This document shows positions 11,967 to 53,268 of a stretch of 64,000 nt of DNA, piece after piece. The position numbers and the translations under genes are program-made. The notes under the pieces were generated by a model that saw nothing but the letters and a program-made list of their open reading frames with translations, searched no databases and was not told the origin of the DNA. Within the stretch, counting starts at the first letter, position 1. Each line of letters opens with the position of its first letter. The stretch lies in contig SCTI01000002.1 of NCBI GenBank assembly GCA_004297735.1, positions 160 to 64,159 on the forward strand, read 5' to 3'. This DNA is from Patescibacteria group bacterium (GTDB lineage Bacteria > Patescibacteriota > Saccharimonadia > UBA4664 > SCTI01).

Positions 11967-13142
11967 TTACTTCGACAGCTCCTGAATCGCCCGTTCCAGC
12001 TGTGGATCACGGCCGGCGTTCAAGTCAGCCTGCTCCAGCTTAACCTCGATATCAGGCTTAATTCCAACCTTATCAATCCCTTGCCCGCTAGGGGTAAACC
12101 AGTGCGCTACCGTCACCTTAAGCTCAGCGCCATCACCCAGCTTAATTACTTCCTGCACGCTACCCTTACCAAAGCTCTTTTCGCCCAACAGTTGGCCGGC
12201 TTTGTTGTCGCGTAAAGCACCAGCCACAATCTCGCTCGCCGAGGCGCTACCCTCATTAATCAACACCACTAGCGGCAATCCAACCAGCTGGCCGCCACCG
12301 GTAGTCTGGAGTCGCTCAACCGTCCTACCCTGACGCCGCTCCTCTACCACCGTCTTGCCATCAGGCAAGAACTGGCTCGAAACATCAACCGCACCATCCA
12401 AGTACCCACCAGGATTGTTGCGCAGGTCCAAAATCACCTTGGTCGCACCCTGAGCCTTAAGATCAGCGGCGGCCTGCTGGAGCTTAGCTACAGTATCGCT
12501 GCCAAACTGCGTTAGCTGAATATAGCCAATGCCATTCTCTTTCATACTCGACTTAACGCTTGGCACCGTGATCACGTCGCGCACAATCTTAATCTCAATT
12601 GGCTCGCTGCTGCCCCTGATTATCTTAAGCGTTACCTCGCTGCCTTTTGGCCCGCGAATCTTACTTACAGCCTCGTCCAGCGTCATGGTTGAGCTGTCTT
12701 GGCCGTTGATGCTAATAATTACGTCTCCAGCACGCACTCCGGCCTTAGCGGCCGGGCTATCAACAATTGGCGAAACCACGGTCAGCTTGTTGTTGCGAAT
12801 CGCCACCTCGGCGCCTACGCCCGATAAAGTACCATTTAACTGGTCTTCAAGATCCTTGGCTTCCTTTGGCTTAAGGTAAACCGTATAAGGATCTCCCAAT
12901 CCGGCTACCAGCCCGGCCTTCGCACCTTCCAGCGTATCGTTTGGCTTAACCTCACCATCAAACTTTTTAACCAGGGTGTCGTATATCGATGATAGTTCGT
13001 TAAAATCAGGGCGCTCATTTGCGGCCGGACCGCCAAACGTCACCACCGTTGGGGCCAGCTGACCACCAACAAACCCAATCGCTAGCAACACCACCGCTAT
13101 CAGGGTGTTGCGCACACTAAATCGAGAGGGTTCTGGATTCAA
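11967..13142 (-). CDS. Carboxy-terminal processing peptidase, S41 family
   Basis: 391 aa with an N-terminal TM, a PDZ-like segment, and GSASASEIVAGAL plus KGS catalytic motifs. Confidence 0.85.
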   Translation of the reverse strand: MNPEPSRFSVRNTLIAVVLLAIGFVGGQLAPTVVTFGGPAANERPDFNELSSIYDTLVKKFDGEVKPNDTLEGAKAGLVAGLGDPYTVYLKPKEAKDLEDQLNGTLSGVGAEVAIRNNKLTVVSPIVDSPAAKAGVRAGDVIISINGQDSSTMTLDEAVSKIRGPKGSEVTLKIIRGSSEPIEIKIVRDVITVPSVKSSMKENGIGYIQLTQFGSDTVAKLQQAAADLKAQGATKVILDLRNNPGGYLDGAVDVSSQFLPDGKTVVEERRQGRTVERLQTTGGGQLVGLPLVVLINEGSASASEIVAGALRDNKAGQLLGEKSFGKGSVQEVIKLGDGAELKVTVAHWFTPSGQGIDKVGIKPDIEVKLEQADLNAGRDPQLERAIQELSK

Positions 13143-13164
13143 AAACTTACCTTTTATTAACTAA

Positions 13165-14268
13165 TTAGAAGTGGATAAAGTACAAATTATCTGATGGGAT
13201 AGTCATTACACTGTATTCGCCAGCGTTATTGAAATTATACTGACTTACAGTAATCATACGTCCTGAAACTGATTCAACATACATAGCATGGCCATATGGC
13301 CCGGCAGTTGTAATGGCAACATCTCCTGGTCGAGGGCTTCCATCAACAGGTATGCCTTCGGCTTGGGCGTTTCCAGGCCACTGCTTGGCGTTCCCCCTAC
13401 CTCCCCAGTATGGCATACGACGTCCGGAATTGGCTACTCGGAAGGCGGTGTAGCTAACACATTCTCGGTTATACATACCCCATCTATCTATAAGTGTGTC
13501 TTTCGGGGCATTACACCATGTGGATGGATAGCCTCCCCCGCAAGGGGTGCCTCCGGAAGGTATGCCTCCAAAACGTGATGCCAAAATAGCCGCTTGCTGC
13601 TTTTTAAGCTCCTCGGCCTTGGCTGAGCTGGCCTTAGCCTGCTCGGCGTACTTCGCCTCATCACCCCTGGTCGAAGCCAAAAGATTTGACTGCTCATTTT
13701 GCTGAATTGCCAACGCCTGAGATAAATTAGTCTGGTTTCTAATTGCCAAATCTAAATCAGCCTGCTGCTTTTCTAGCTCTTCCTTTTGTCGCTGAACCTC
13801 TTTAGCGGCTTCCTGAACGTGATCCTTTAAGGTGTCTAAGTACTGCTGGCGGTCAACATACTCGCTAAAGCTTCGGCTCGAAGCCAACATTTCGAGTGGC
13901 GAAACCTTAGACTCCTGGTAGATAACGCGGACGTTCTCGTCTAGCACCTGCTTTTTTAATGCCAGTTTATCTTTGGCATCATTAATATCTTGAGTTAGCT
14001 TCTGAGCCTTGGCCTTGTTAGCGGCAATTTGCGAGCGAATCGCCTGCGACTGCGCCGCAATCTCGGCCAGCTTGTTGGCCAGCGTGTCGCCCTGAGTTCT
14101 TAAGGTAGCCGCCTGCTGTTGGTTGCGAGCCGCATCGGCGTTAGCGGCCGCGATTTGCTCCTCTAGCGTGGCGGCGTGGGCCGCTACCGGCGCCAACACC
14201 AAACCCAACGCTAGAACCAGCGCTGTTATGGTTTTAAAACTGAAATTTTTGTTTTTTGGTGAAACCAT
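13165..14268 (-). CDS. Secreted coiled-coil protein with C-terminal CHAP-type peptidoglycan hydrolase domain (PcsB-like architecture)
   Basis: Signal/TM region, then a Q/A/K-rich coiled coil of about 230 aa, then NRECVSYTAFRV...GHAMYVESV (Cys/His of CHAP). Lies directly downstream of ftsEX. The start was moved to the Met at 14268. Confidence 0.75.
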   Translation of the reverse strand: MVSPKNKNFSFKTITALVLALGLVLAPVAAHAATLEEQIAAANADAARNQQQAATLRTQGDTLANKLAEIAAQSQAIRSQIAANKAKAQKLTQDINDAKDKLALKKQVLDENVRVIYQESKVSPLEMLASSRSFSEYVDRQQYLDTLKDHVQEAAKEVQRQKEELEKQQADLDLAIRNQTNLSQALAIQQNEQSNLLASTRGDEAKYAEQAKASSAKAEELKKQQAAILASRFGGIPSGGTPCGGGYPSTWCNAPKDTLIDRWGMYNRECVSYTAFRVANSGRRMPYWGGRGNAKQWPGNAQAEGIPVDGSPRPGDVAITTAGPYGHAMYVESVSGRMITVSQYNFNNAGEYSVMTIPSDNLYFIHF

Positions 14269-14417
14269 ACTAATTAGGTGTTCGCCCCTTAACACTGTTT
14301 ACTATACCCCTTTAGGTTTAATAATTCAATAGCGGTTATGATTCAGGCGCCTTAGCGCTTACGCCAAGAGCACGAGAGGTATTATGGCTGAGTTTTAATC
14401 TGGAATCAACCGGCTAA

Positions 14418-15341
14418 TTATAGCTTGAGATAGCGTTTTAGGGCGACCATACTCGAAGCGGTGCCAATTAAAATTCCTAAAGCCAAAAGCGCAAACACCA
14501 CCAGCACCACATTATCTTGGAGCAGCTTAACTACGATTCCGGTGTCGACGTAGTTACCAAGCCGCGGCGCCCCCTTTAAGATCACGGTGTAGGTAAACGC
14601 AATCGCGATAAAGGCCGCAATAATGCCATACAGGGCGGCCTCAAAAATGAACGGCCCACGAATATACCAGTTGGTAGCGCCCACCAGCTTCATGATCTCA
14701 ATCTCCTCCCGGCGGGTAAAGATGGCCATGCGGATGGTGTTAAAGATGATCAAGGTTGAGATGATCACGAACACGACCGAGGCAGCCAGCCCGGTAGCCT
14801 TAAAGAAGTTTGAGGTTTGAATGATCCGGTCGATGGTGGCCTTGCGATCGCCACTGTAGCTAATCGGCTCCCGATCAGCCAGTAGCGGCTTGAACTCCGA
14901 CTGGTTCACCACCGCCGTAATTGGGTCGAGCTTGTTTGGGTCCTTGGCTTTAATTTGGAGCGAAGCCGGCAACGGGTTATCGGTCTCGGTTACCGCCTCG
15001 AGCAGCTTGGGGTTATCCTTGTTTTGCTCACGATACTGCTTGAGCGCCTCGGCCTTGGTCACCAAAACCACTCCCTGAACGTTATCGGTCTGCTCTAACT
15101 TAACCTTGAGTGCCTTAATTTGATCGGGGGTGGCGGAGTCCTTAAGGTACACCGACACATCAATCTTACCAACCACCTCTTTAATGGTTGAGTTGAGGGC
15201 GACGGTGGCCACGTAAGAGACGGCTACCAGAGTAAGCGTAATGGTCATGACGGCTGTAGCGGCGGTGCTTAGCCAAGCGTTGCGGGCAAAGTTGTGCAGC
15301 CCGGTCTTGGTGATCCGGGCGGCTGTTAGCGGATTGATCAT
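14418..15341 (-). CDS. ftsX: Cell division permease-like protein FtsX
   Basis: 307 aa with four TM segments and a large first extracellular loop. Overlaps ftsE by 4 nt. Confidence 0.85.
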   Translation of the reverse strand: MINPLTAARITKTGLHNFARNAWLSTAATAVMTITLTLVAVSYVATVALNSTIKEVVGKIDVSVYLKDSATPDQIKALKVKLEQTDNVQGVVLVTKAEALKQYREQNKDNPKLLEAVTETDNPLPASLQIKAKDPNKLDPITAVVNQSEFKPLLADREPISYSGDRKATIDRIIQTSNFFKATGLAASVVFVIISTLIIFNTIRMAIFTRREEIEIMKLVGATNWYIRGPFIFEAALYGIIAAFIAIAFTYTVILKGAPRLGNYVDTGIVVKLLQDNVVLVVFALLALGILIGTASSMVALKRYLKL

Positions 15342-16018
15342 AGAGCGTACTTCCCCTGCTCTTCGTCCTTGATGATCCGGCCGCGCTGAATGGTAATAAC
15401 CCGCCGCTTGAGCGAGTTTACGATCTCTTTGTTGTGAGTGGTTAACAGGACGGTGGTGCCAAACCGGTTAATCTTTAGCAATAATTCAATGATTTCCCAA
15501 GCATTCTTGGGGTCCAGGTTGCCGGTAGGCTCATCGGCCACCAGGATCTTGGGTTGGCGAACAAGGGCGCGCGCAATCGCGACACGCTGGCGCTCACCAC
15601 CGGATAGTTCGCGCGGAAAGTTCTTTTCTTTACCGCTGAGGCCGACCAGCTGAAGCACGCGGGGCACGCTGCGCTTAATCTCACGGTTGGGAGCGCCGGC
15701 CACCTCAAGCGCAAAGGCCACGTTTTCGTGCACGTTACGGCTTGGTAGTAGCTTAAAGTCCTGGAACACCACGCCAATTCGGCGGCGCAGGTGCGGCACG
15801 TTCTTATACACAATGGTGTCATAATCCAGCCCGCCCACAATAATCTTGCCGGAACTTTGAACCTCTTCGCGGGTAAGCAGTTTAATCAGCGTCGATTTGC
15901 CAGCACCGGACGCACCCACGATAGTCACAAACTCCTTGGGTTGGATGTGCAGATTCAGCCCGCTTAGGGCAATCTGCTTGTTCGGGTACATTTTGGTAAC
16001 GCGATCAAACAGTATCAC
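15338..16018 (-). CDS. ftsE: Cell division ATP-binding protein FtsE
   Basis: Walker A GASGAGKST, signature LSGGERQR, Walker B ILVADEPT. Confidence 0.9.
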   Translation of the reverse strand: MILFDRVTKMYPNKQIALSGLNLHIQPKEFVTIVGASGAGKSTLIKLLTREEVQSSGKIIVGGLDYDTIVYKNVPHLRRRIGVVFQDFKLLPSRNVHENVAFALEVAGAPNREIKRSVPRVLQLVGLSGKEKNFPRELSGGERQRVAIARALVRQPKILVADEPTGNLDPKNAWEIIELLLKINRFGTTVLLTTHNKEIVNSLKRRVITIQRGRIIKDEEQGKYAL

Positions 16019-17307: not shown

Positions 17308-18006
17308 TTATCGGTTGAGTAGCTTTTTAGCCAAGGCACGCTTACTGCGGCGGTAAGCCATCACAGCGTAACCAAGAGCACCACTACCAGCCATGGCCAT
17401 CAGGCCAGCCTCAGGACCGGTCTCCGGAAGAGTGGTCGGCTGAGCGGCGGCTGGGGTAGCCGGAGTCTTTGGCTGCTCGGTAGTAGTAGTTGGGCAGTCA
17501 ACCTGGGCCTTAAACTGGACGAAACGAATCTGTTGGGTCGAAACACCAACGCTAGAAACGGTAACGCCACCGTTTAAGATGCCGTCGGGCAGGCTATTCA
17601 AAACCACGTTGTTCGGGTCAAGCAGCTGGGTGCTACCTGGAACATAGCTCAAACGAGCGGCACTTGAAAGGTTTACACCCGCAGTGTCGGTAATCTGAGT
17701 TGGGTTGGCGTCAGCAGCGGTTACGGTAACCATTGAGCTGTGACTGGTTCCAACAGTGGTAGGCAAAGTAGCCTTAACGTTAACATTGTTGATTGGGTCT
17801 GGACCCGGGTTGTGAATACGTACCTTAAAGGTAACAACCTCACATGGTTTGGCGGTTACAGGATCACCAAAAGTGGTGTTCTGAGTATCGTTCTTTACGC
17901 GATAGATGTTACCGCCCTCGATCTGACCGGCGGCCATTACGGGGGTAGCAACTAAGCTGACGACTGCAACAGCAGCTACAGCGGAAGTCTTAAGATTGAA
18001 GTTCAT
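17308..18006 (-). CDS. LPXTG-anchored cell-surface protein
   Basis: Signal peptide MNFNLKTSAVAAVAVVSLVATPVMAA. C-terminal LPETG plus a hydrophobic stretch plus RRSKR. AAAGGAGAAG RBS before the ATG at 18006. Confidence 0.85.
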   Translation of the reverse strand: MNFNLKTSAVAAVAVVSLVATPVMAAGQIEGGNIYRVKNDTQNTTFGDPVTAKPCEVVTFKVRIHNPGPDPINNVNVKATLPTTVGTSHSSMVTVTAADANPTQITDTAGVNLSSAARLSYVPGSTQLLDPNNVVLNSLPDGILNGGVTVSSVGVSTQQIRFVQFKAQVDCPTTTTEQPKTPATPAAAQPTTLPETGPEAGLMAMAGSGALGYAVMAYRRSKRALAKKLLNR

Positions 18007-18154
18007 AGTCTTCTCCTTTCTGATGCTTTCGCACACAGAAAATTAGTTATCTTACGAAGTGATTCGTTAACGCATGTTATTTAGTTGTAAACGTACCACC
18101 TCTGTAAGAGAGACGGTAGACAGGCTAGATAGTCACAGATTATCAAGTTGGGTT

Positions 18155-18180
18155 GGGGCGGGGCTCGAAAGCCCCACCCC
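18155..18180 (-). terminator. GC-rich hairpin terminator (no U-tract)
   Basis: Minus strand: GGGGTGGGGC-tttcga-GCCCCGCCCC, a 10-bp stem, 15 nt after the stop at 18195. Confidence 0.6.
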
Positions 18181-18194
18181 ATTGATACCCAGAA

Positions 18195-19607
18195 CTAGTG
18201 CATCGCCGCGGTCACCGTGGTGGTGGTCCCCGGTGTGTCCGAGTCGGTGATGACGACCGCGGAGTCGAACGACCCGGGTGTCCCGGGCGTCTCGGCCTTG
18301 ACGTCGGTGTTACCCGTCGTCGTGACCGTGCCGCCGGTGCCGGTCGCGGTAGCCGTGATCGTCACCATGCCCGCGACCGAAGTCGCCCACATGGTCACCC
18401 GGTAGCACTTGGTGCCGGTCGGGCACGGTGTGCCATCCCAGCGGTACGGAACCGAGATCTTGCCGGCAAACCAGGCCGACGCGTTGCCGCTGGTGATGAC
18501 CGCGTCACCGCTGGCGCCTTCACCCGAAGCCTCGTAGTAAACCTGGCAGTTGCCAGTCACGAAGATGTGGGCGCAGGTCGTCAGCTGGATCGACGGCGGT
18601 GGAATCACCGGCGGAGGCGGCGTGACCGGGGGCGGCGGCGGAGGCGGAACCTCCTTCTTGCAGATATCCCCGTTCACCGTCACGTAGTTGCCGTTGCCGA
18701 CCACCACGATGCTGCACTCCGCAACGATCACGAAGCACTGCTGGATCTGCGAGTTCCACACGTGGTTCTGCTCGGCCTTGCACTGCTGCTCAGCCGAAAC
18801 CACCTGGCCGGGGGTTGCGGTTGGCGGGACCTCAGCCGTCGGCGGGATCTTGCGAACCAGCCGCCTCTTGACCGACTTGACCTTCTTGACGAAGGCCCGG
18901 ACATACGTCTTGCACTTCTGCCACTTCTTGCCGGCCACCACGTTACGGCAGTAGGCCTTCATGAAGGGGCGATACGAGACGCACTCCTTGTACTTCTGGT
19001 GGTAGGTGGTGCTCGTCTCGATCGTCTCGTCGACGTACACCTCCGTCTCACCGGTCGCGTCGTTGTGCACGAACTGCTCCGGCGAGATCGAGATGACCTT
19101 GCTGGTGGGCTTCCCCACCGGCTTCGGCTTCCCGACCCGCTTCTTGCTCGTCGACCGAACGGCCAGCACACCCATGTGGGAATGCCGGTAGTTGCCGTCG
19201 AATGTCGAGTAGACGCCCCCGCTGCACGAGGTGTTGAACGACAGCGTGTAGCCGCCCGGGGTGGTCGTGAAGACCACCTTCGGCGACTGCAGGAACGCCA
19301 TGACCGACTGGTCCTGGTGCATGTAGCCCTGCTCGATGAGCTTGCGCTTCATCGAAGGCAGGAACTTCTTGCCCGCCGGCGTCTTGTAATACGCGACGGC
19401 GCCGGCCTTCGAGGTGAAGCCCGGACCGCAGTACGCCTGGGCCGGCGCGGCGGCGCCGAACGACATCAGGATCGCCGCCACCACGGCGGCGATCGACAGC
19501 ATGACCTTGCGGAACATGGTGACCTCCAGGGTCGTGGGACGGATGAACTTGATGAATCGGCTGACGAACTTGTCAGCCGTCTGGCGGGTGAGGTGCACGT
19601 TGGGCAT
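18195..19607 (-). CDS. GC-rich secreted Cys-rich protein with poly-proline linker and Thr/Gly-rich C-terminus, unknown function
   Basis: ATG at 19607 follows AAAGGAGGGG. The first 30 codons have G/C at the third position in 27 of 30 (hand count). An internal Met at 19517 (GGAGGTCACC upstream) starts a classical signal peptide, MFRKVMLSIAAVVAAILMSFGAAAPAQA. PPPPPPPVTPPPPVIPPP linker. Confidence 0.75.
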   Translation of the reverse strand: MPNVHLTRQTADKFVSRFIKFIRPTTLEVTMFRKVMLSIAAVVAAILMSFGAAAPAQAYCGPGFTSKAGAVAYYKTPAGKKFLPSMKRKLIEQGYMHQDQSVMAFLQSPKVVFTTTPGGYTLSFNTSCSGGVYSTFDGNYRHSHMGVLAVRSTSKKRVGKPKPVGKPTSKVISISPEQFVHNDATGETEVYVDETIETSTTYHQKYKECVSYRPFMKAYCRNVVAGKKWQKCKTYVRAFVKKVKSVKRRLVRKIPPTAEVPPTATPGQVVSAEQQCKAEQNHVWNSQIQQCFVIVAECSIVVVGNGNYVTVNGDICKKEVPPPPPPPVTPPPPVIPPPSIQLTTCAHIFVTGNCQVYYEASGEGASGDAVITSGNASAWFAGKISVPYRWDGTPCPTGTKCYRVTMWATSVAGMVTITATATGTGGTVTTTGNTDVKAETPGTPGSFDSAVVITDSDTPGTTTTVTAAMH

Positions 19608-19682
19608 GACCCCTCCTTTCGGATGGCTGACAAGACTACCGCGTAGCCCAACTACGCGGTTACGGTGATGTGTACCGAAACC

Positions 19683-19718
19683 TGGGAATATATCGTGGGC
19701 GGCACAAATATATTCCCA
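19683..19718. repeat. 11-bp perfect inverted repeat in the 5' UTR
   Basis: TGGGAATATAT (19683-19693) and ATATATTCCCA (19708-19718) with a 14-nt spacer. A CCGCGTAG/CTACGCGG hairpin lies nearby at about 19639-19659. Confidence 0.8.
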
Positions 19719-19884
19719 GAGTACGGCACACAGCCTAATCGCGTAGAGGACTGTGCAAATGTCTAGTTCTATAGGTATCAAGGGTCTTGATGACCCATGA
19801 CTATCTAGCTTGTCAATGTCCCCTCATCTGAACCAGTTCGGTTGATTTCTCCACCTCACCTCTGTTCTTCAGAGTGAATATAAC

Positions 19885-19913
19885 AATATATCATGCTTAT
19901 GCATTTTTGTCAA
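19885..19913 (-). promoter_or_regulatory. Sigma70-type promoter, ATTGACAAAA family
   Basis: Minus strand: TTGACA (19913-19908), 17 nt, TATATT (19890-19885). The context is AGTATTGACAAAAA. Confidence 0.65.
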
Positions 19914-19977
19914 TACTTAAGCTGTATAAAATGCTTATGATTTTAGTGCATTCTCATAAGATATAATTCCTGTGCTT

Positions 19978-20008
19978 GGGGCCAGATCGTACAATCTGAT
20001 CTGACCCC
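19978..20008 (-). terminator. Hairpin terminator after the peptidase gene
   Basis: Minus strand: GGGGTCAGATC-agattgtac-GATCTGGCCCC, an 11-bp stem including one G-U pair. Confidence 0.6.
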
Positions 20009-20032
20009 AGTTCTCTATCTATTCCGAACCTG

Positions 20033-20950
20033 TTAACGTTCGGCGGTCCAGGTTGAGACCATGGCAGAGGCGCGGAGTTCATTGGCCGTGAAGCCTCTGT
20101 TCTCGTTGTTCCGCCCGAACTGCCCTGTATTCCAAGGGTCTGCCAGGTAGAACTTGCCCTGCTTAAAGCCGCGGATCACCAAAAAGTGTCCGCCTCCTGT
20201 AAACGGTCCAGGAGCAAAGAGAATGATCGCGAGACCACCTCTTTGAACGGTATTGGCTACCAAACCGAGATCTCCTCCTGTGCGGCGGGCCTCAAGCCCC
20301 ATACTCAGGAGGGCGGTCAAGATGATGTCTCCGCCACCATGGAAGTAGCTCAACACTCCACCCTGGATAATCTGACTGCAGTACTTGCGAGCCAGACTAA
20401 CAGGAGAGACCCTGCTTCCAGGATGAAGCGTCCGGCCCACCATAGTGAGAGCCGTCACGCCGCAACCCGAACCCTTGATCGTTCTGCCGCCACCGAGGCG
20501 ACAAAACGGCTTGCCTCCCCACTTCTTCGAGGTTTGGTTGAGGCTGACCATCGGATAATGTCCACCGATGGTGTAGCCAAATCCCCTCTTAAAGGGGCGG
20601 ATGTGCGCGCCTGATTGACGCTGAGGGTTCGACGGATGGCGACGAGCCGGCTTGGTGGCCGACTTCGGTGCCTTATCGGTACCCTCTTCTCCCTTCACAA
20701 TCCCCAGATCTTCAATGGTTGTCTCATCTGGAGGAAGCGGCGGGAGCTCGGTCGCAACCGGCGGGGGTGCCTCCGTCGAAGGGGGCAAGGTTTCTTCGGG
20801 TGGGGGCGAAGAATTTGGATCCTCAACCACCACCGTTTCACCGTTACCGGTGATGACGGTTTGAGCCATACCCGAAGCGGGTGCCCAGGTCGCGATCGCC
20901 AGCGTAGCGCTGGCAACCAAAGCCAGGATAATGCTGATGAAGCGTGACAT
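20033..20950 (-). CDS. Secreted papain-fold cysteine peptidase, C39-like domain, with Pro-rich linker
   Basis: Signal peptide MSRFISIILALVASATLAIATWAPASGMA. PPPEETLPPSTEAPPP linker. Candidate triad is Cys in GSGCGVTALTMV, His in GGGHFLVIRG and Asp in LADPW. AGAGG RBS before the ATG at 20950. Confidence 0.7.
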   Translation of the reverse strand: MSRFISIILALVASATLAIATWAPASGMAQTVITGNGETVVVEDPNSSPPPEETLPPSTEAPPPVATELPPLPPDETTIEDLGIVKGEEGTDKAPKSATKPARRHPSNPQRQSGAHIRPFKRGFGYTIGGHYPMVSLNQTSKKWGGKPFCRLGGGRTIKGSGCGVTALTMVGRTLHPGSRVSPVSLARKYCSQIIQGGVLSYFHGGGDIILTALLSMGLEARRTGGDLGLVANTVQRGGLAIILFAPGPFTGGGHFLVIRGFKQGKFYLADPWNTGQFGRNNENRGFTANELRASAMVSTWTAER

Positions 20951-21004
20951 GTACACCTCTAGAGGTTGAATTTTCAGAGAACGTGTCCCTTTACGGGATA
21001 TTAC

Positions 21005-21033
21005 ACTATATAATACTTTTGTTTTTTTGTCAA
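21005..21033 (-). promoter_or_regulatory. Sigma70-type promoter, ATTGACAAAA family
   Basis: Minus strand: TTGACA (21033-21028), 17 nt, TATAGT (21010-21005). The context is AGATTGACAAAAAAA. Confidence 0.65.
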
Positions 21034-21102
21034 TCTAAGAATCGACTATGTTTAATCTGGTTTTCATCTGTTGAGCGTGGATTCGTGGGAGGTAAAGTGG
21101 GG

Positions 21103-21132
21103 CCCTGGAGCGGCAGAGTTGCCGCCCCAGGG
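21103..21132 (-). terminator. Hairpin terminator after the 95-aa gene
   Basis: Minus strand: CCCTGGGGCGGCA-actc-TGCCGCTCCAGGG, a 13-bp stem with one G-U pair. Confidence 0.6.
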
Positions 21133-21142
21133 TTGAGTCGCA

Positions 21143-21430
21143 TCAAAAGCAGGGCCGATGGGCCCAGTACTGGACCGAGTATGAGGGGTAGCCAGCCACC
21201 CTGACTACCTCGACCCAGCGAGTGAGCAGAGGCGCCGAGATGGTGACTTCCTCAAAGTCAAGGCACATCCGGTAAAGCTTTCCGCTGCTGCTCCATCCGG
21301 TGTTGTTGTACGGGCTTGCCGGGGCCTTGGTTGCTGCGGCTGCCCAAAAACAGCACAAGCCGGCCGACAGCAGCATGATGAGCAGGAATGCTCGCCAGCC
21401 CCGGCGGTACAACGACATCAGGTGTGACAT
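21143..21430 (-). CDS. GC-rich small secreted protein, 95 aa, unknown function
   Basis: GAGGAGGG lies upstream of the ATG at 21430. Signal-like MSHLMSLYRRGWRAFLLIMLLSAGLCCFWAAAATKA. Third codon positions are mostly G/C in this frame. The mature part has two Cys. Confidence 0.65.
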   Translation of the reverse strand: MSHLMSLYRRGWRAFLLIMLLSAGLCCFWAAAATKAPASPYNNTGWSSSGKLYRMCLDFEEVTISAPLLTRWVEVVRVAGYPSYSVQYWAHRPCF

Positions 21431-21588
21431 AATCTGGCACCCTCCTCAGGGCTTCAAGATCTACAGATCGTGAACTTCTGCGGTAGGGCATCCGTGCCCC
21501 TCCTATGTGGTTGCTTTCCTATCTGATACGACTCTGGGTGACTTGATCACCCACGAATCAACACATCGCTGTCAACGTACGATGGACA

Positions 21589-21617
21589 AATATACCATAA
21601 AGCTTACGTTTTGTCAA
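21589..21617 (-). promoter_or_regulatory. Sigma70-type promoter, ATTGACAAAA family
   Basis: Minus strand: TTGACA (21617-21612), 17 nt, TATATT (21594-21589). The context is TCATTGACAAAAC. Confidence 0.65.
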
Positions 21618-21701
21618 TGATTTTACAGCACTGTATAGCTGATTTAATTACCAGTTAATTAAAAATTCGACAGATAGAACGATCTGGATTATGGTCGATA
21701 T

Positions 21702-21947
21702 ATGAACTATATTGATCAGCCTGGCTACGAGGAGTTTAAGGAAGCAATAAAGCGCTTCCACCCCGACACTCAAGAGCGTTTATTGCGCATACATGCTAAA
21801 AATGAGCAAAGGTGGAGAGCTCACGATGAAGATTTTTACGCAGTTATTGAGGATACAACTCAGATGAAGAAGTTATTACGACGGATTAAAAAGCGTCTTG
21901 ATGCATTTGAAAATAAGTCTAAAGCGGTCGGGACAAGAAAAGCCTAA
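21702..21947 (+). CDS. AT-rich hypothetical protein, 81 aa
   Basis: ORF MNYIDQPGYEEFKEAIKRFHPDTQERLL... is convergent with secA and overlaps its stop by 4 nt. No recognised family. Confidence 0.45.
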   Translation: MNYIDQPGYEEFKEAIKRFHPDTQERLLRIHAKNEQRWRAHDEDFYAVIEDTTQMKKLLRRIKKRLDAFENKSKAVGTRKA

Positions 21948-24556
21948 CGTCGTTTTTTGCGTTTTTTGTTTGCCTTTTTAGAGCCCCCAGATGAGCTCTT
22001 TTGTCGTCTAGCAGCACGGTTGCCACCAGATGGAGCAACCTCTTCCCCATCTGATCCGGCCTGGCTCATATCGCTGAGCTCGTGGGCCTGGGCAGCGGCC
22101 CGGGTCATAGCGGTCTGGACCTGTTCACCGGCTGGTTCAATGGTCAGGCTGGCGCGTAAGATTGAATTGGCAATCTCCGCCTCCATAATCTGGATCAGCC
22201 GATTAAATAGGTTGTGACTTTCGCGCTTGTACTCAATTAACGGATCGCGCTGACCAATGGCACGCAGGCCAATACCTTCACGCAGTCGCTCCATGGCCTC
22301 CAGGTGCTCAATCCATAACCGGTCGAGTATCTGCAGGTAAACCAGCCGCTCCAGCAAGCGCATCGCCTCCGACCCCATCTGTTGTTCCCTGGAATCATAC
22401 AGCTTAGCGGTGTAACCAATTAGGATTTGAGCCACATCTCGCGGGTCAGCATCCTTAACCTGATCTATTACCGACTGGTCCAACATCATGCCGGCCTGGA
22501 CCTGTTCAACCACCTTATCGGTATCAAGTATGCCGGTACGCTGATCGGTGTGAGCTTCAACCAACACCGTCATCTCGTGAGCCAGCATCTTCTCAATCTC
22601 TTCCCTCAGGTTGGCGTGCTTGAGCGCCGCCTTGCGTCGGCTGTAAATCACCTCACGGTGTCGGTTCATTACATCGTCAAACTCAACCACCTGCTTGCGA
22701 ATGTCGAAGTTGTGCCCCTCCACCTTCTTTTGGGCGTTTTCAAGACTACGACTAACCACGCCGCTCTCAATCGGCGTTTCGTCGTCAACACCTAGACTTT
22801 GCATCAAACCGGCCACTCGCTCGCCACCAAAGATGCGCATCAGATCATCTTCGAGCGAGACATAAAAACGGGTTGAGCCTGGGTCACCCTGGCGCCCAGC
22901 GCGACCACGCAGCTGGTTGTCGATCCGACGAGACTCGTTGCGCTCGGTACCAATTACGTACAAACCGCCAACCTCCTGCACTCCTTCGCCCAACACAATA
23001 TCGGTACCACGACCGGCGATGTTGGTGGCAAGCGTCACCGCCCCCGGCTGGCCGGCATCGGCCACAATTGAGGCCTCGCGTTCGTTGTTTTTGGCGTTGA
23101 GCACTCGGTGCGGAATCTTAGCCTTACTTAGCAACTGGCTCAGCATTTCGTTCTTAGCGATTGAGGCAGTACCAACCAACACCGGCTGACCGGCCTGGTG
23201 TCGCTCGGCAATATCACCCACCACGGCGTTAAACTTACCCATCTGAGTACGATAAATTCGATCTGGATGGTCAATTCGGATATTGGGTTTGTTGGTTGGA
23301 ACCACCACCACATCTAGCTCATAGACCTTAAAGAACTCCTCTTTTTCGGTCGCGGCGGTACCGGTCATACCGGCCAGCTTCTGGTAAAGGCGGAAGTAGT
23401 TCTGGAAGGTGATGGTGGCTAGCGTCATCGATTCCTGACGAATCTCAACCCCCTCTTTGGCCTCAATCGCCTGGTGTAGACCCTCGCTGTAGCGACGACC
23501 GTGCATTAAGCGACCGGTGAACTCGTCCACAATAATGATCTCGTTTTCGCGCACCACGTAATCTCGATCCTTGAGGTAGAGCGACTGAGCCTTGAGCGAC
23601 TGCTCAACGTGGTGAACGTCCTCAATCCGACCGGCTTCGTAAACATTATCAACACCTAAAGCCTTTTCCAGCTTACAAATACCATCGTCGGTAACACTGA
23701 CCGCCTTTTGCTTTTCGTCCAAGGTGTAATCTGTCCCCTCCTGTAAACCCTGGGCCAAGCGGGCAAACTGACGATACTTGTCGGTGCTTTCGCCGGCCGG
23801 GGCGCTAATGATGAGTGGAGTCCGTGACTCGTCAATCAAGATAGAGTCGACCTCGTCAACAATGGCGTAGGCCAGATCACGCTGCACCATCGCTGGCTCT
23901 TCATTAACCATATTGTCGCGCAAGTAATCAAAACCAAACTCGTTGTTGGTACCGTAGGTAATATCGGCGGTATAGGCTTCGCGGCGGCTAACCGGGCGCA
24001 GATGTTTGAGTCGGACGTCGTCAACACCTTCGGCCCCATAGTCCGGATCGTACAGATAAGCTGATACACCAAAGGTCGCCTGTGGCACAATCACCCCGGT
24101 GGTCAAGCCAAGCGCATGGTAAATCTGAGCCATCCAGCCGGCGTCACGTCGTGCCAGATAGTCGTTAACGGTCACCACGTGAACGCCCTTACCGGCCAAA
24201 GCGTTAAGGTAGGTTGGCGCGGTAGCAACCAGGGTCTTACCCTCACCGGTCCGCATTTCGGCGATTTTACCCTGGTGGAGCACGATTCCGCCGATTAGCT
24301 GGACATCATAATGGCGCTGGCCAATGGTGCGCCTGGCGGCTTCGCGAACCGTGGCAAAGGCTTCGGGCAGGAGATCATCGATGCCGACACCTTCTTTGGC
24401 AAGCTGATCTTTGAGCTTTTGGGTCTGATCTTTGAGCTTAGCATCGGATAATTTCTTGGTTTTGGCTTCGAGTGCGTTGACCTGTTCAACCAGCCGCTGA
24501 GCGCGGTTGACTTCGCGGGAACTGGTATCGCCAAAAATGCGCTGCAACAACTTCAT
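21944..24556 (-). CDS. secA: Preprotein translocase ATPase SecA
   Basis: 870 aa with MRTGEGKTL Walker A, DEVDSILIDE DEAD-like box and TNIAGRGTDI. The C-terminus is a Lys/Arg-rich tail without the Cys zinc motif. Confidence 0.95.
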   Translation of the reverse strand: MKLLQRIFGDTSSREVNRAQRLVEQVNALEAKTKKLSDAKLKDQTQKLKDQLAKEGVGIDDLLPEAFATVREAARRTIGQRHYDVQLIGGIVLHQGKIAEMRTGEGKTLVATAPTYLNALAGKGVHVVTVNDYLARRDAGWMAQIYHALGLTTGVIVPQATFGVSAYLYDPDYGAEGVDDVRLKHLRPVSRREAYTADITYGTNNEFGFDYLRDNMVNEEPAMVQRDLAYAIVDEVDSILIDESRTPLIISAPAGESTDKYRQFARLAQGLQEGTDYTLDEKQKAVSVTDDGICKLEKALGVDNVYEAGRIEDVHHVEQSLKAQSLYLKDRDYVVRENEIIIVDEFTGRLMHGRRYSEGLHQAIEAKEGVEIRQESMTLATITFQNYFRLYQKLAGMTGTAATEKEEFFKVYELDVVVVPTNKPNIRIDHPDRIYRTQMGKFNAVVGDIAERHQAGQPVLVGTASIAKNEMLSQLLSKAKIPHRVLNAKNNEREASIVADAGQPGAVTLATNIAGRGTDIVLGEGVQEVGGLYVIGTERNESRRIDNQLRGRAGRQGDPGSTRFYVSLEDDLMRIFGGERVAGLMQSLGVDDETPIESGVVSRSLENAQKKVEGHNFDIRKQVVEFDDVMNRHREVIYSRRKAALKHANLREEIEKMLAHEMTVLVEAHTDQRTGILDTDKVVEQVQAGMMLDQSVIDQVKDADPRDVAQILIGYTAKLYDSREQQMGSEAMRLLERLVYLQILDRLWIEHLEAMERLREGIGLRAIGQRDPLIEYKRESHNLFNRLIQIMEAEIANSILRASLTIEPAGEQVQTAMTRAAAQAHELSDMSQAGSDGEEVAPSGGNRAARRQKSSSGGSKKANKKRKKRR

Positions 24557-52467: not shown

Positions 52468-52653
52468 ATGGGAAAGCCAAAGTTCGACACCCAGTCGAAC
52501 AACTCGAATGCGTGGGTCGGTGTCCGCGAAGGTCAGGACAGATCATCCGGCAAGACGCATACCGAGATCATCGTGCATGACAAGAGCAACAACGATCACG
52601 CTCACGTCGGCATCGATAAGAGCGGCAATCAGATATATCGCCGTGATCGCTAA
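52468..52653 (+). CDS. GC-rich small hydrophilic protein, 61 aa
   Basis: AAAGGAGG RBS with ATG at 52468. MGKPKFDTQSNNSNAWVGVREGQDRSSGKTHTEIIVHDKSNNDHAHVGIDKSGNQIYRRDR. Third codon positions are mostly G/C. Confidence 0.55.
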   Translation: MGKPKFDTQSNNSNAWVGVREGQDRSSGKTHTEIIVHDKSNNDHAHVGIDKSGNQIYRRDR

Positions 52654-52662
52654 ATAGCGACA

Positions 52663-52683
52663 CCGAGGCCCTTCCGGCCTCGG
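52663..52683. terminator. GC hairpin between convergent islet genes
   Basis: CCGAGGCC-cttcc-GGCCTCGG, an 8-bp stem. Confidence 0.55.
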
Positions 52684-52699
52684 GCCGGGAGGGCCTCAT

Positions 52700-53026
52700 C
52701 TATACGCGGCGCGTCAGGCCATCCTCGCGAGCTACTCCCTCACCGAACGCCGATGCAATCGCGCTGTAGCGCGCGAGGAGCACCAGAGCGTTCGCAATCT
52801 CGCCATGCTCAGCCGGTACGAGAAACTCTCGCATCCACGCTGAGTTCGGAGTCGCAGCCATTATGTCCGCGAGCACAGCAGCCTCTTCGGGATCTGCTGC
52901 CGCCCAACGATCACGAATCAGCTTCGAAGCTTGATCGATCGATCGGTCATCGAAGTCGTCCTCGTCGAAGCGACGGCGCATTTCATCGCGCAGCTCGACC
53001 AAGTCTTGTAATTCACTGTTACCCAT
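52700..53026 (-). CDS. GC-rich acidic helical protein, 108 aa, unknown function
   Basis: ORF MGNSELQDLVELRDEMRRRFDEDDFDDRSIDQASKLIRDRW... is divergent from the recombinase gene. Confidence 0.55.
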   Translation of the reverse strand: MGNSELQDLVELRDEMRRRFDEDDFDDRSIDQASKLIRDRWAAADPEEAAVLADIMAATPNSAWMREFLVPAEHGEIANALVLLARYSAIASAFGEGVAREDGLTRRV

Positions 53027-53268
53027 GGCTTTATTGTCGAACAGGCCAGCGACTCATGCAAGCACGAGCGTGTCCAATCGCCCGTCCGATCGCGTCAGAG
53101 TGCTCGCTCCTGAACTTCCCGCATTCAGGCGCTTTCCGCTCGATTAAGGCCTAGGACTATCTAGGGCCCTTTGCCCTCCCTTACTACAAACGCCTCCAGA
53201 TCTGGCAAAATACGTATTGGCTTAACTACTGATACGAGCTAAGATCCTTAACGAAAGGAGGTGCACAT

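Follow-up and report, generated by a model that had tools for sequence, protein, structure and literature searches.

The stretch of DNA considered here (64,000 nucleotides of contig SCTI01000002.1, from the metagenome-assembled genome (MAG) of a Patescibacteria group bacterium; hereafter the window) contains a locus of three minus-strand genes, denoted a, b and c, which lies between a gene for an LPETG surface protein and secA (Table 1). We favor, with a probability of roughly 0.55, the reading that this locus is a lineage-specific, fast-diversifying island of exported proteins within the conserved interval from secA to prfB-ftsEX that did not come from another phylum. An earlier note on this DNA had described three minus-strand genes, each with a signal peptide, a promoter and a hairpin, in a locus between the LPETG gene and secA that is free of mobility genes, and in all these respects it is confirmed, with the hairpins located exactly where it had placed them. 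Its proposal of a foreign, actinobacterial origin did not hold: the locus is syntenic in relatives, the codon usage of b is native, and the unusual composition of a is a property of the whole family.

Gene order carries much of the argument. In the related locus L001, a 17-kb contig from a different sample, the genes for the tRNA synthetases, secA, c, b, a, the LPXTG protein and prfB are colinear with those of the window, with 75-83% nucleotide identity. Among remote homologs, P0006 is the closest to a, with 48% identity over residues 33-331, and is encoded between secA and prfB-ftsE-ftsX-CHAP. More distant loci (L009-L011) present the order secA, Mur ligase, b homolog (37% identity), a gene in the position of a (the a slot), LPXTG gene (57%), a second LPXTG-like gene and prfB, and in L013, with a secA that is 89% identical, b is missing between a gene in the position of c (the c slot) and an a-slot gene, after which come the LPXTG gene and prfB. 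Distant loci keep the secA...prfB frame and, therefore, the island is native and ancestral in the Saccharimonadales lineage. Co-occurrence of the three genes elsewhere, a question raised in the earlier note, extends for a and b to the distant relative L009; c lies next to b in four loci (the window, L001, L002 and L003). The species-representative genomes with members of the a family are labelled Candidatus Saccharimonadales, and the homologs of a and b that were found belong only to Saccharimonadales-like or unassigned metagenome contigs, none of which is assigned to Actinobacteria. A homolog of the LPETG protein is encoded directly downstream of the a slot in every locus with downstream DNA (L001, L006, L007, L008, L009, L013 and L014). 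Past prfB (11967-16018, minus strand) lie ftsE, ftsX and genes for a PcsB-like CHAP hydrolase (13165-14295) and an S41/PDZ CtpB-like peptidase (11967-13142), so that the variable island borders a cluster of division-hydrolase genes.

The GC-rich, foreign composition previously attributed to the whole locus is a feature of a, in which the G+C fraction of third codon positions (GC3) is 0.91 (A 2%, T 7%), and in part of c (0.76); it is not a feature of b, where GC3 is 0.62 and normal for the genome, with 43 of the 46 other genes in the window falling between 0.47 and 0.69. High GC3 recurs throughout the a slot: values of 0.82-0.93 were obtained for nine of the ten genes measured, compared with 0.34-0.71 for neighboring genes in genomes of 47-56% GC. 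Specifically, GC3 is 0.88 in L001, in L006 (locus GC 0.47, neighbors 0.34-0.44) and in L008 (neighbors 0.42-0.60), 0.93 in L009 (LPXTG gene 0.45, a 196-aa gene 0.77), 0.84 in L013 and 0.82 in L015, the exception being L007, where it is not elevated (0.69). A GC3 of about 0.9 is a long-maintained trait of the a family against the genomic background, the opposite of amelioration. Recent horizontal transfer of a was considered and is rejected on the grounds of synteny and of the GC3 of about 0.9 in distant homologs from lower-GC genomes; the codon bias of a is not well accounted for by such transfer, nor by the usual bias linked to expression. Between the window and L001, synonymous divergence (dS) amounts to 0.31 for a, 0.97 for b and 1.25-1.67 for secA and serS. 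The b homolog of L009 (7001-7696) has a GC3 of 0.88, against 0.62 for b of the window, and the bias is thus not confined to a single protein family. Elsewhere in the window, a 1005-aa gene (59765-62782, minus strand) that, judged by eye from its N-terminus, resembles class II (B12-dependent) ribonucleotide reductase (NrdJ-like) has a GC3 of 0.86 and the same codon table as a (TTC, ATC, AAG, CCG, TCG); its origin could be foreign, or the force that acts on a could act on it too.

Protein a was characterized in the earlier note as a Cys-rich protein of 440-470 aa with a PPPPPPPVTPPPPVIPPP linker and a Thr/Gly-rich tail, which agrees with the 470 aa and 13 Cys found here. It consists of a 30-aa N-terminal extension, a signal peptide, a basic N-domain (residues 59-254; 35 K+R vs 11 D+E), a Cys-rich module (~276-316), poly-Pro linkers and, in the C-terminal half, an Ig-like domain (339-437) followed by the Thr/Gly tail; there is no sorting signal in a. 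The signal peptide, MFRKVMLSIAAVVAAILMSFGAAAPAQA followed by YCGPGF, opens at a second in-frame ATG (19515) with a GGAGG Shine-Dalgarno (SD) sequence of its own. GC3 steps from 0.47 to 0.90 exactly at the upstream ATG (19607), which argues that the 30-codon extension is translated. This extension (19515-19607), in which GC3 is already 0.90, has 96-99% DNA identity to L001, the maximum of the region; similar extensions are present in P0008, P0016, P0018 and L013, and that of a may be an extended signal-peptide region.

The AlphaFold2 (AF2) model of a, built from 44 sequences, has a predicted local distance difference test score (pLDDT) of 80 for the whole protein, and over residues 60-255 the score exceeds 95. 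The modelled N-domain has a small helical head and then three beta-strands, 37, 30 and 26 residues long, and residues 339-437 form a beta-sandwich for which the nearest structures in a fold search include the adhesin or pilin domains of FdeC, EbpB, intimin, invasin and SrpA. No match to a was obtained among the Pfam and NCBIfam models. A word-indexed protein search found a single homolog, and an exhaustive HMMER scan was needed to reveal the family, which comprises at least 83 cluster representatives. One subset shares the N-domain (AYCGPGF ... KPFMKxYCRN) and another the C-domain (EASDPDGD ... RWDGxPCPxGxxCYRxTxWA), and the combinations of N-terminal, middle and C-terminal modules differ between loci. 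To judge from these alignments, a belongs to an unannotated modular protein family and, with a ratio of nonsynonymous to synonymous divergence (dN/dS) of 0.18 relative to L001, appears to be under purifying selection.

The a-slot genes are preceded by a long, conserved leader. The region upstream of these genes aligns across nine loci (a set that includes loci from a metagenome scan with the leader pattern), in which the proteins are as low as 30-37% identical. In the comparison of the window with L001, identity peaks in non-coding DNA: between the a promoter and the signal-peptide region it is 83-99%, and the spacer that separates a from the LPXTG gene has 88-95%. The leader comprises a 5' stem (P1) from 19878, a hairpin denoted m1 (19780-19798), a long hairpin (19668-19731) that bears the invariant loop GUGCCGCCCACGA at 19693-19705, and a further hairpin (19638-19660), after which comes the SD sequence. 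Its single-sequence fold has a z-score of -4.8, and RNAalifold predicts, for an alignment of eight leaders, 41 pairs with 97.5% of cells paired; compensatory changes occur in 16 of these 41 pairs, compared with 8.0±1.7 after column shuffles and 2-5 when the partners are slid. None of the 4227 families of Rfam 15 matches the leader, and none matches at gathering thresholds anywhere in the window; at E<=1, the only result within 18000-21750 is a chance miRNA with 22 bits against a cut-off of 100. A scan of viral contigs with the leader pattern produced 0 matches. The covariation shows the leader to be a conserved structured RNA, one without prior description.

Part of the leader recurs beyond the gene. 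The m1 core (AAnYTRGATAGnYAYGG...AAG) has an inverted copy a few bases past the post-stop hairpin, so that a is bracketed by two arms (18119-18147 and 19786-19814; core GACAnGCTAGATAGTCA...ATCAAG; 16/17 inverted in blastn), and the 3' arm is the best non-self match in the whole window to R1, a covariance model of m1. The bracket is present in all eight loci with both ends, the variants of the arms being specific to each locus and common to both of its arms. Among the eight assemblies, the a slot is found in one orientation only, and no recombinase adjoins it. The bracket could act on DNA, as an operator, inversion or exchange site, or on RNA, through pairing of the 5' and 3' regions. In another part of the window, a 577-aa protein (53269-55002, plus strand) in a high-GC stretch (GC3 0.77) resembles, by eye from its N-terminus, large serine recombinases; upstream of it are a hairpin of -34.5 kcal/mol (52646-52705) and the palindrome GGCCTAGGACTATCTAGGGCC (53148-53166), which contains CTAGATAGTC. 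This region may be an integrated element. The third copy of CTAGATAGTC (53150-53164), a match to the m1 core, was treated as a chance occurrence, at least three matches being obtained in 8 of 100 shuffles and the extended motif being absent.

The c slot combines conserved expression signals with a variable product. Identity between the window and L001 is ~90% at the nucleotide level from the c promoter through the leader into approximately the first 20 codons (compared with ~80% for the leader's flanking housekeeping genes), drops within the mature part to 39-48%, the flanks having ~90% and 68-76%, and recovers at the stop codon; the dN/dS of the whole gene is 0.74. The leader is still conserved in L002, the b of which is just 53% identical. 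The proteins encoded in the slot consist of 95 aa in the window, 96 in L001, 186 in L002 and 160 in L013, and of a fifth c-slot gene, different again, L003 shows the 3' end alone. The four complete proteins are barely alignable and have nothing in common but a signal peptide, the short motif SGE/K and, at the C-terminus, (R/E)PxC(F/S). The description of c as a secreted protein of 95 aa with two Cys was correct as to length, signal peptide (of the n/h/c type) and mature part; the total is four Cys, two of them in the signal peptide. No Pfam, NCBIfam or PADLOC match was obtained for c, and PADLOC reports no defence system for any protein of the island.

Two further ideas about the c slot were abandoned. 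As a target of a diversity-generating retroelement, c would differ from what is found, there being no template repeat of its mature part elsewhere in the window and the differences between loci being not restricted to A positions and including changes of length. Kinship of the c leader with m1 was suggested by similar GGGU.AUCAAG.ACCC hairpins; the pattern was derived from these two sites themselves, MAFFT did not align them, and R1 misses the c leader at E<=10. The ORF that starts at the out-of-frame SD and ATG pair in the c leader (21491, MPYRR...) and overlaps the c start is conserved neither in length nor in sequence, the pair itself being kept in the window, L001, L002 and L013; this ATG may open an upstream open reading frame (ORF) or may be part of an SD-sequestering structure. 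The small divergent gene on the opposite side of the conserved intergenic region that it shares with the c slot overlaps the end of secA with its 3' end and has homologs of 87 (L001), 72 (L002) and 70 aa (L013) in the same position. It also diverges rapidly (42% identity to the L001 homolog), and its only Pfam match is to KxDL, below threshold.

Gene b encodes EPO04_01720 in the NCBI annotation of the MAG. The protein consists of a signal peptide (residues 1-29, MSRFISIILALVASATLAIATWAPASGMA followed by Q), a Pro-rich linker (~44-80) and a catalytic domain (~118-305) with the motifs GSGCGVTAL, GGGHFLVIRG and LADPW. The earlier assignment to C39-like, papain-type peptidases is supported: Pfam PF13529 (Peptidase_C39_2) matches residues 161-275 with 37.9 bits (cut-off 24, E 3.4e-9), precomputed PF13529 matches are available for the homologs P0001, P0002, P0097, P0098 and P0100, and the C70 and C39 models remain under threshold (PF03412, 15.5 vs 22). 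Cys163, His255 and Asp271 are invariant in 11 of 11 homologs, and a profile of these 11 sequences retrieves LahT150, a double-glycine protease domain (PDB 6MPZ; E 4e-5), with the Cys/His/Asp motifs aligned; PDB searches with the single sequence of a or b gave no match. The candidate oxyanion-hole residue, Gln139 (LNQTS), is found in eight of the ten homologs that cover the region and is replaced by Met in the other two. The AF2 model of b, built on four sequences only, has a pLDDT of 46 and is too poor for a fold search; at this low confidence, Cys163 starts a helix (163-175) and His255 a strand (255-263). Relatives with at least 53% identity number only four proteins among 5.8 billion clusters, and a profile search adds seven distant ones, for a total of 11 cluster representatives, all metagenomic. 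By sequence, b is a rare, divergent, secreted stand-alone member of Peptidase_C39_2 and a predicted peptidase; its dN/dS of 0.12 relative to L001 points to purifying selection. Members of C39_2 are described as single-domain peptidases with unclear substrate and function (PMC10318531), and the family is listed among the catalytic domains of lysins from phages of Gram-positive bacteria (PMC8223927).

The LPETG protein possesses the LPETG motif, a hydrophobic stretch and a basic tail, ending in ...TTLPETGPEAGLMAMAGSGALGYAVMAYRRSKRALAKKLLNR, as in sortase substrates, together with a DUF11-type repeat (TIGR01451, 24.4 bits vs a cut-off of 24). Right after the predicted signal-peptide cleavage site, the LPXTG proteins of the window, L001, L006, L007, L009 and L013 carry GQ[IL]xGG, which could be a putative C39-type cleavage site; the motif is thus also found in L013, a locus with no b.

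The transcription signals of the island form a regular pattern. A promoter scan of the minus strand returned exactly three matches of 11/12 to the sigma-70 pattern TTGACA-17-TATAAT (21617, 21033 and 19913), one per gene, which are kept in the related loci L001, L002, L003 and L013; the block TTGACAAAA..ATGATATATTGnTATATTCACTC of the a promoter is kept in seven loci, in a slightly variant form in L007. The post-c hairpin region is kept from the stop codon onward in L001, L002 and L003, a comparable hairpin is located 3' of every a-slot gene, and the LPETG gene is trailed by a similar one. Strong stem-loops in the window are both intragenic and intergenic, with four intergenic ones within this 4-kb stretch. 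The observed pattern of genes, promoters and hairpins is not due to chance. None of the three post-gene hairpins was called in a simple terminator scan, because they have no U-tract.

Table 1. Features of the island and its immediate flanks (positions in the window; hairpin energies are those of folded post-stop segments that contain the hairpins)
Feature	Position	Strand	Remarks
Gene a	18195..19607	-	470 aa from an ATG preceded by a GGAGG SD
Gene b	20033..20950	-	305 aa
Gene c	21143..21430	-	95 aa
c-slot promoter	21589..21617	-	TTGACA-17-TATATT, TG-extended, 11/12; identical in L001 and L002
c-slot 5' leader	21431..21588	-	two SD+ATG pairs: ATG 21491 (MPYRR), out of frame; ATG 21430, c start
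b promoter	21005..21033	-	11/12; kept in four loci
a-slot promoter	19885..19913	-	11/12
a-slot structured 5' leader RNA	19608..19878	-	~270 nt
Hairpin after c	21103..21132	-	GC-rich, -28.3 kcal/mol, no U-tract
Hairpin after b	19978..20008	-	GC-rich, -23.8 kcal/mol, no U-tract
Hairpin after a	18155..18180	-	GC-rich, -32.3 kcal/mol, no U-tract
Inverted repeat, 3' arm	18119..18147	+	partner 5' arm at 19786-19814 in the a leader
LPETG surface protein gene, DUF11/B_ant repeat	17308..18006	-	TIGR01451 and sorting signal
Small divergent gene	21702..21947	+	81 aa, no signal peptide seen
secA	21944..24556		flanks the locus on the side opposite the LPETG gene

Taken as an island of exported proteins, the locus would consist of units that are transcribed separately, a strong promoter and a GC-rich stem-loop belonging to each. 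A small mature protein, almost completely divergent between related genomes, would be expressed in the c slot from a promoter, leader and signal-peptide start that are ultraconserved. The optional unit, b, would be a secreted C39_2 cysteine peptidase that is spaced from the membrane by its Pro-rich linker and acts extracellularly on envelope peptides, either wall peptides, as assumed for C39_2 phage lysins, or neighboring surface proteins. In the a slot, the RNA leader would drive a disulfide-rich exoprotein, with synonymous sites kept at ~90% G/C, and would set its expression post-transcriptionally. The sortase-anchored DUF11 protein encoded next to the a slot would be the fourth unit. Protein a and the LPXTG protein could be envelope or surface components that contact the host cell or anionic wall polymers, and the variability of the c and a slots would be the outcome of diversifying selection at a host or phage interface. 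Export, which a, b and c all appear to undergo given the Sec-type signal peptides read from their sequences, as already proposed, is what we infer here, as are the substrates, the surface location, regulation by the leader and diversifying selection; cell-wall attack or host interaction is a reasonable candidate function.

Several observations weigh against this interpretation. The signal peptides of a, b and c were judged by eye, and, as the hairpins are free of U-tracts, independent transcription of the three genes is presumptive. A b homolog occurs alone, in unrelated surroundings, in L012, and b is missing from the a-bearing loci L013 and L007, so that it is not required for a; as the model of b is poor, its papain fold is a prediction from sequence. 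The N-domain of a has no structural match in the fold search, and its very long modelled strands may be sensible only in an oligomer. The high GC3 is not shared by the translation genes of the window (rpsB, tsf and frr).

Among the other explanations, acquisition of a wall-attack module of the high-GC actinobacterial type, with c as the inhibitor or immunity partner of b, would fit the GC3 of a, its codon usage, which is like that of high-GC organisms and the same as in the NrdJ-like gene, the phage lysin connection of the b family and the position of c directly upstream of b. Such an origin is improbable in view of the synteny in relatives with protein identity down to 37-48%, the native codon usage of b, the persistence of a-slot GC3 of about 0.9 in genomes of 47-56% GC and across the dS of 0.31 to L001, the lack of a mobility gene in the locus and the taxonomic confinement of the homologs found. 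The pairing of enzyme and immunity protein proposed in the earlier note is unsupported because each occurs without the other (a c-slot gene without b in L013, b without c in L009), and the four c proteins are barely alignable. The same two loci speak against a bacteriocin-like system in which the c-slot product would be a secreted toxin or signal peptide and b, by analogy with C39 double-glycine peptidases, its maturation protease. The homology of the b family to LahT150, the adjacency of c and b in four loci and the resemblance of the c slot to polymorphic secreted peptides, with conserved leader and variable cargo, are compatible with this idea, but the signal peptide of c is of the ordinary Sec type, with no double-glycine leader, b is a secreted protein that carries no ABC exporter fusion and scores below the PF03412 cut-off, and neither an exporter nor an immunity gene is nearby; we consider the idea quite unlikely.

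The inverted repeats invite the view of the a slot as a cassette that is mobile or can be inverted (phase-variable), with a composition produced by exchange between strains, possibly through GC-biased conversion. Every a-slot gene examined has repeats of 17-29 nt on both sides, with a common consensus and arms that co-vary by locus; the bracket does not include the promoter, and inversion would put the GC hairpin directly after the promoter-proximal arm; the dS of a is far below that of secA and serS; and the N- and C-modules are shuffled among loci. On the other hand, the orientation is the same in eight of eight independent assemblies, no recombinase adjoins the slot (the only one seen in the window is ~34 kb away), the same LPXTG gene is always beside it, constraint on synonymous sites alone can explain the low dS, and the arms might just as well serve as operators or pair with each other as 5' and 3' RNA, so that this view appears unlikely. 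A more inclusive proposal, which is possible if doubtful, holds that the a slot is a regulated and perhaps switchable host-specificity cassette: the leader would respond to a ligand, to a protein, to host contact or to some similar signal, the repeats would either mediate DNA inversion or cassette exchange or pair into a long-range 5'/3' RNA duplex that governs processing, the ~90% G/C of synonymous sites would thereby be kept, for example via GC-biased conversion or selection on mRNA structure, and the a and c slots together would be a contingency locus for the range of hosts open to attachment. Finally, the coding strand of a can itself be questioned, an ORF of 482 codons (18198..19646, plus strand) lying antisense to it, in a frame in phase with the a codons that is open throughout a in the window, L001, L006, L009 and L013. 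Stops in this frame correspond to the sense codons TTA, CTA and TCA, only 0.4-1.9 of which are expected per gene at 1-4% of A-ending codons, and the ORF is a by-product of the near absence of such codons from a; the homologs in L008 and L007 contain two and one of these stops, respectively, and it is the sense frame that has the signal peptide, conserved Cys, a dN/dS of 0.18, a confident AF2 model and 83 homologs. A real or second antisense gene can for practical purposes be dismissed.

Patescibacteria, the Saccharibacteria among them, live attached to bacterial hosts, which they recognize and hold in ways that are poorly understood. We know of almost no regulatory RNAs in this phylum. For a cultivated Saccharibacterium, epibiotic growth has been found to require several adhesins (PMC10633639). 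Against this background, the island offers a compact set of testable candidates, namely a cysteine peptidase, a modular family (a) paired with a sortase substrate, and a slot (c) with contents that differ in each genome that has a complete gene there, along with a new structured RNA with good covariation and a gene-specific codon bias conserved in evolution; composition alone would have misjudged a native, ancestral gene, a, as foreign. Literature searches returned no description of the locus and nothing relevant on Saccharibacteria with C39, LPXTG/sortase or GC3. What is new here is the unannotated family defined by a, the leader RNA motif absent from Rfam and the conserved gene-specific GC3 of about 0.9; b is a new member of an already known family.

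With Peptidase_C39_2 (PF13529), b shares a score above the curated cut-off, the order Cys-Gly...His...Asp, with a candidate Gln ahead of it, and, as in many members, a single catalytic domain behind a signal peptide (PMC10318531); it differs in belonging to a very small divergent subfamily, in its Pro-rich spacer and in its location within a surface-protein island of an epibiont. The homology to the C39 peptidases of bacteriocin exporters (PF03412; LahT150, 6MPZ) is detectable, with Cys, His and Asp aligned, but b is stand-alone, exported and below the PF03412 cut-off, and the island encodes no ABC exporter or double-glycine leader peptide, ftsE, 4 kb away, being a cell-division ABC protein and the only GG motif noticed near b being the GQ[IL]xGG of the LPXTG proteins. 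The locus also departs from horizontally acquired genomic islands: aberrant composition is limited to a, the locus is present in relatives, no mobility gene is present, and there is no tRNA in the window. The a leader resembles the cis-regulatory leaders of Rfam in being long, multi-helical and covarying, with invariant loop nucleotides and a position between promoter and SD, but has no Rfam match, no identified intrinsic terminator or obvious SD-sequestering switch, and a part that has an inverted copy on the far side of the gene, downstream. Variable surface-protein or contingency loci, such as the variable lipoprotein loci of mycoplasmas, have a conserved expression site. The conserved promoter, leader and signal-peptide start of the c slot ahead of a variable mature part, and the shuffled modules of the a slot, are similar in kind; silent cassettes, repeats and a recombinase serving the slots were not found in the window, and the variation is seen between genomes. 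Compared with the sortase-anchored Ig-like/DUF11 proteins and fibrillar adhesins of Gram-positive bacteria, a lacks a sorting signal and has a basic, long-stranded N-domain without a structural match, whereas the DUF11 repeat of the LPETG protein and the Ig-like C-domain of a are features that the island has in common with them.

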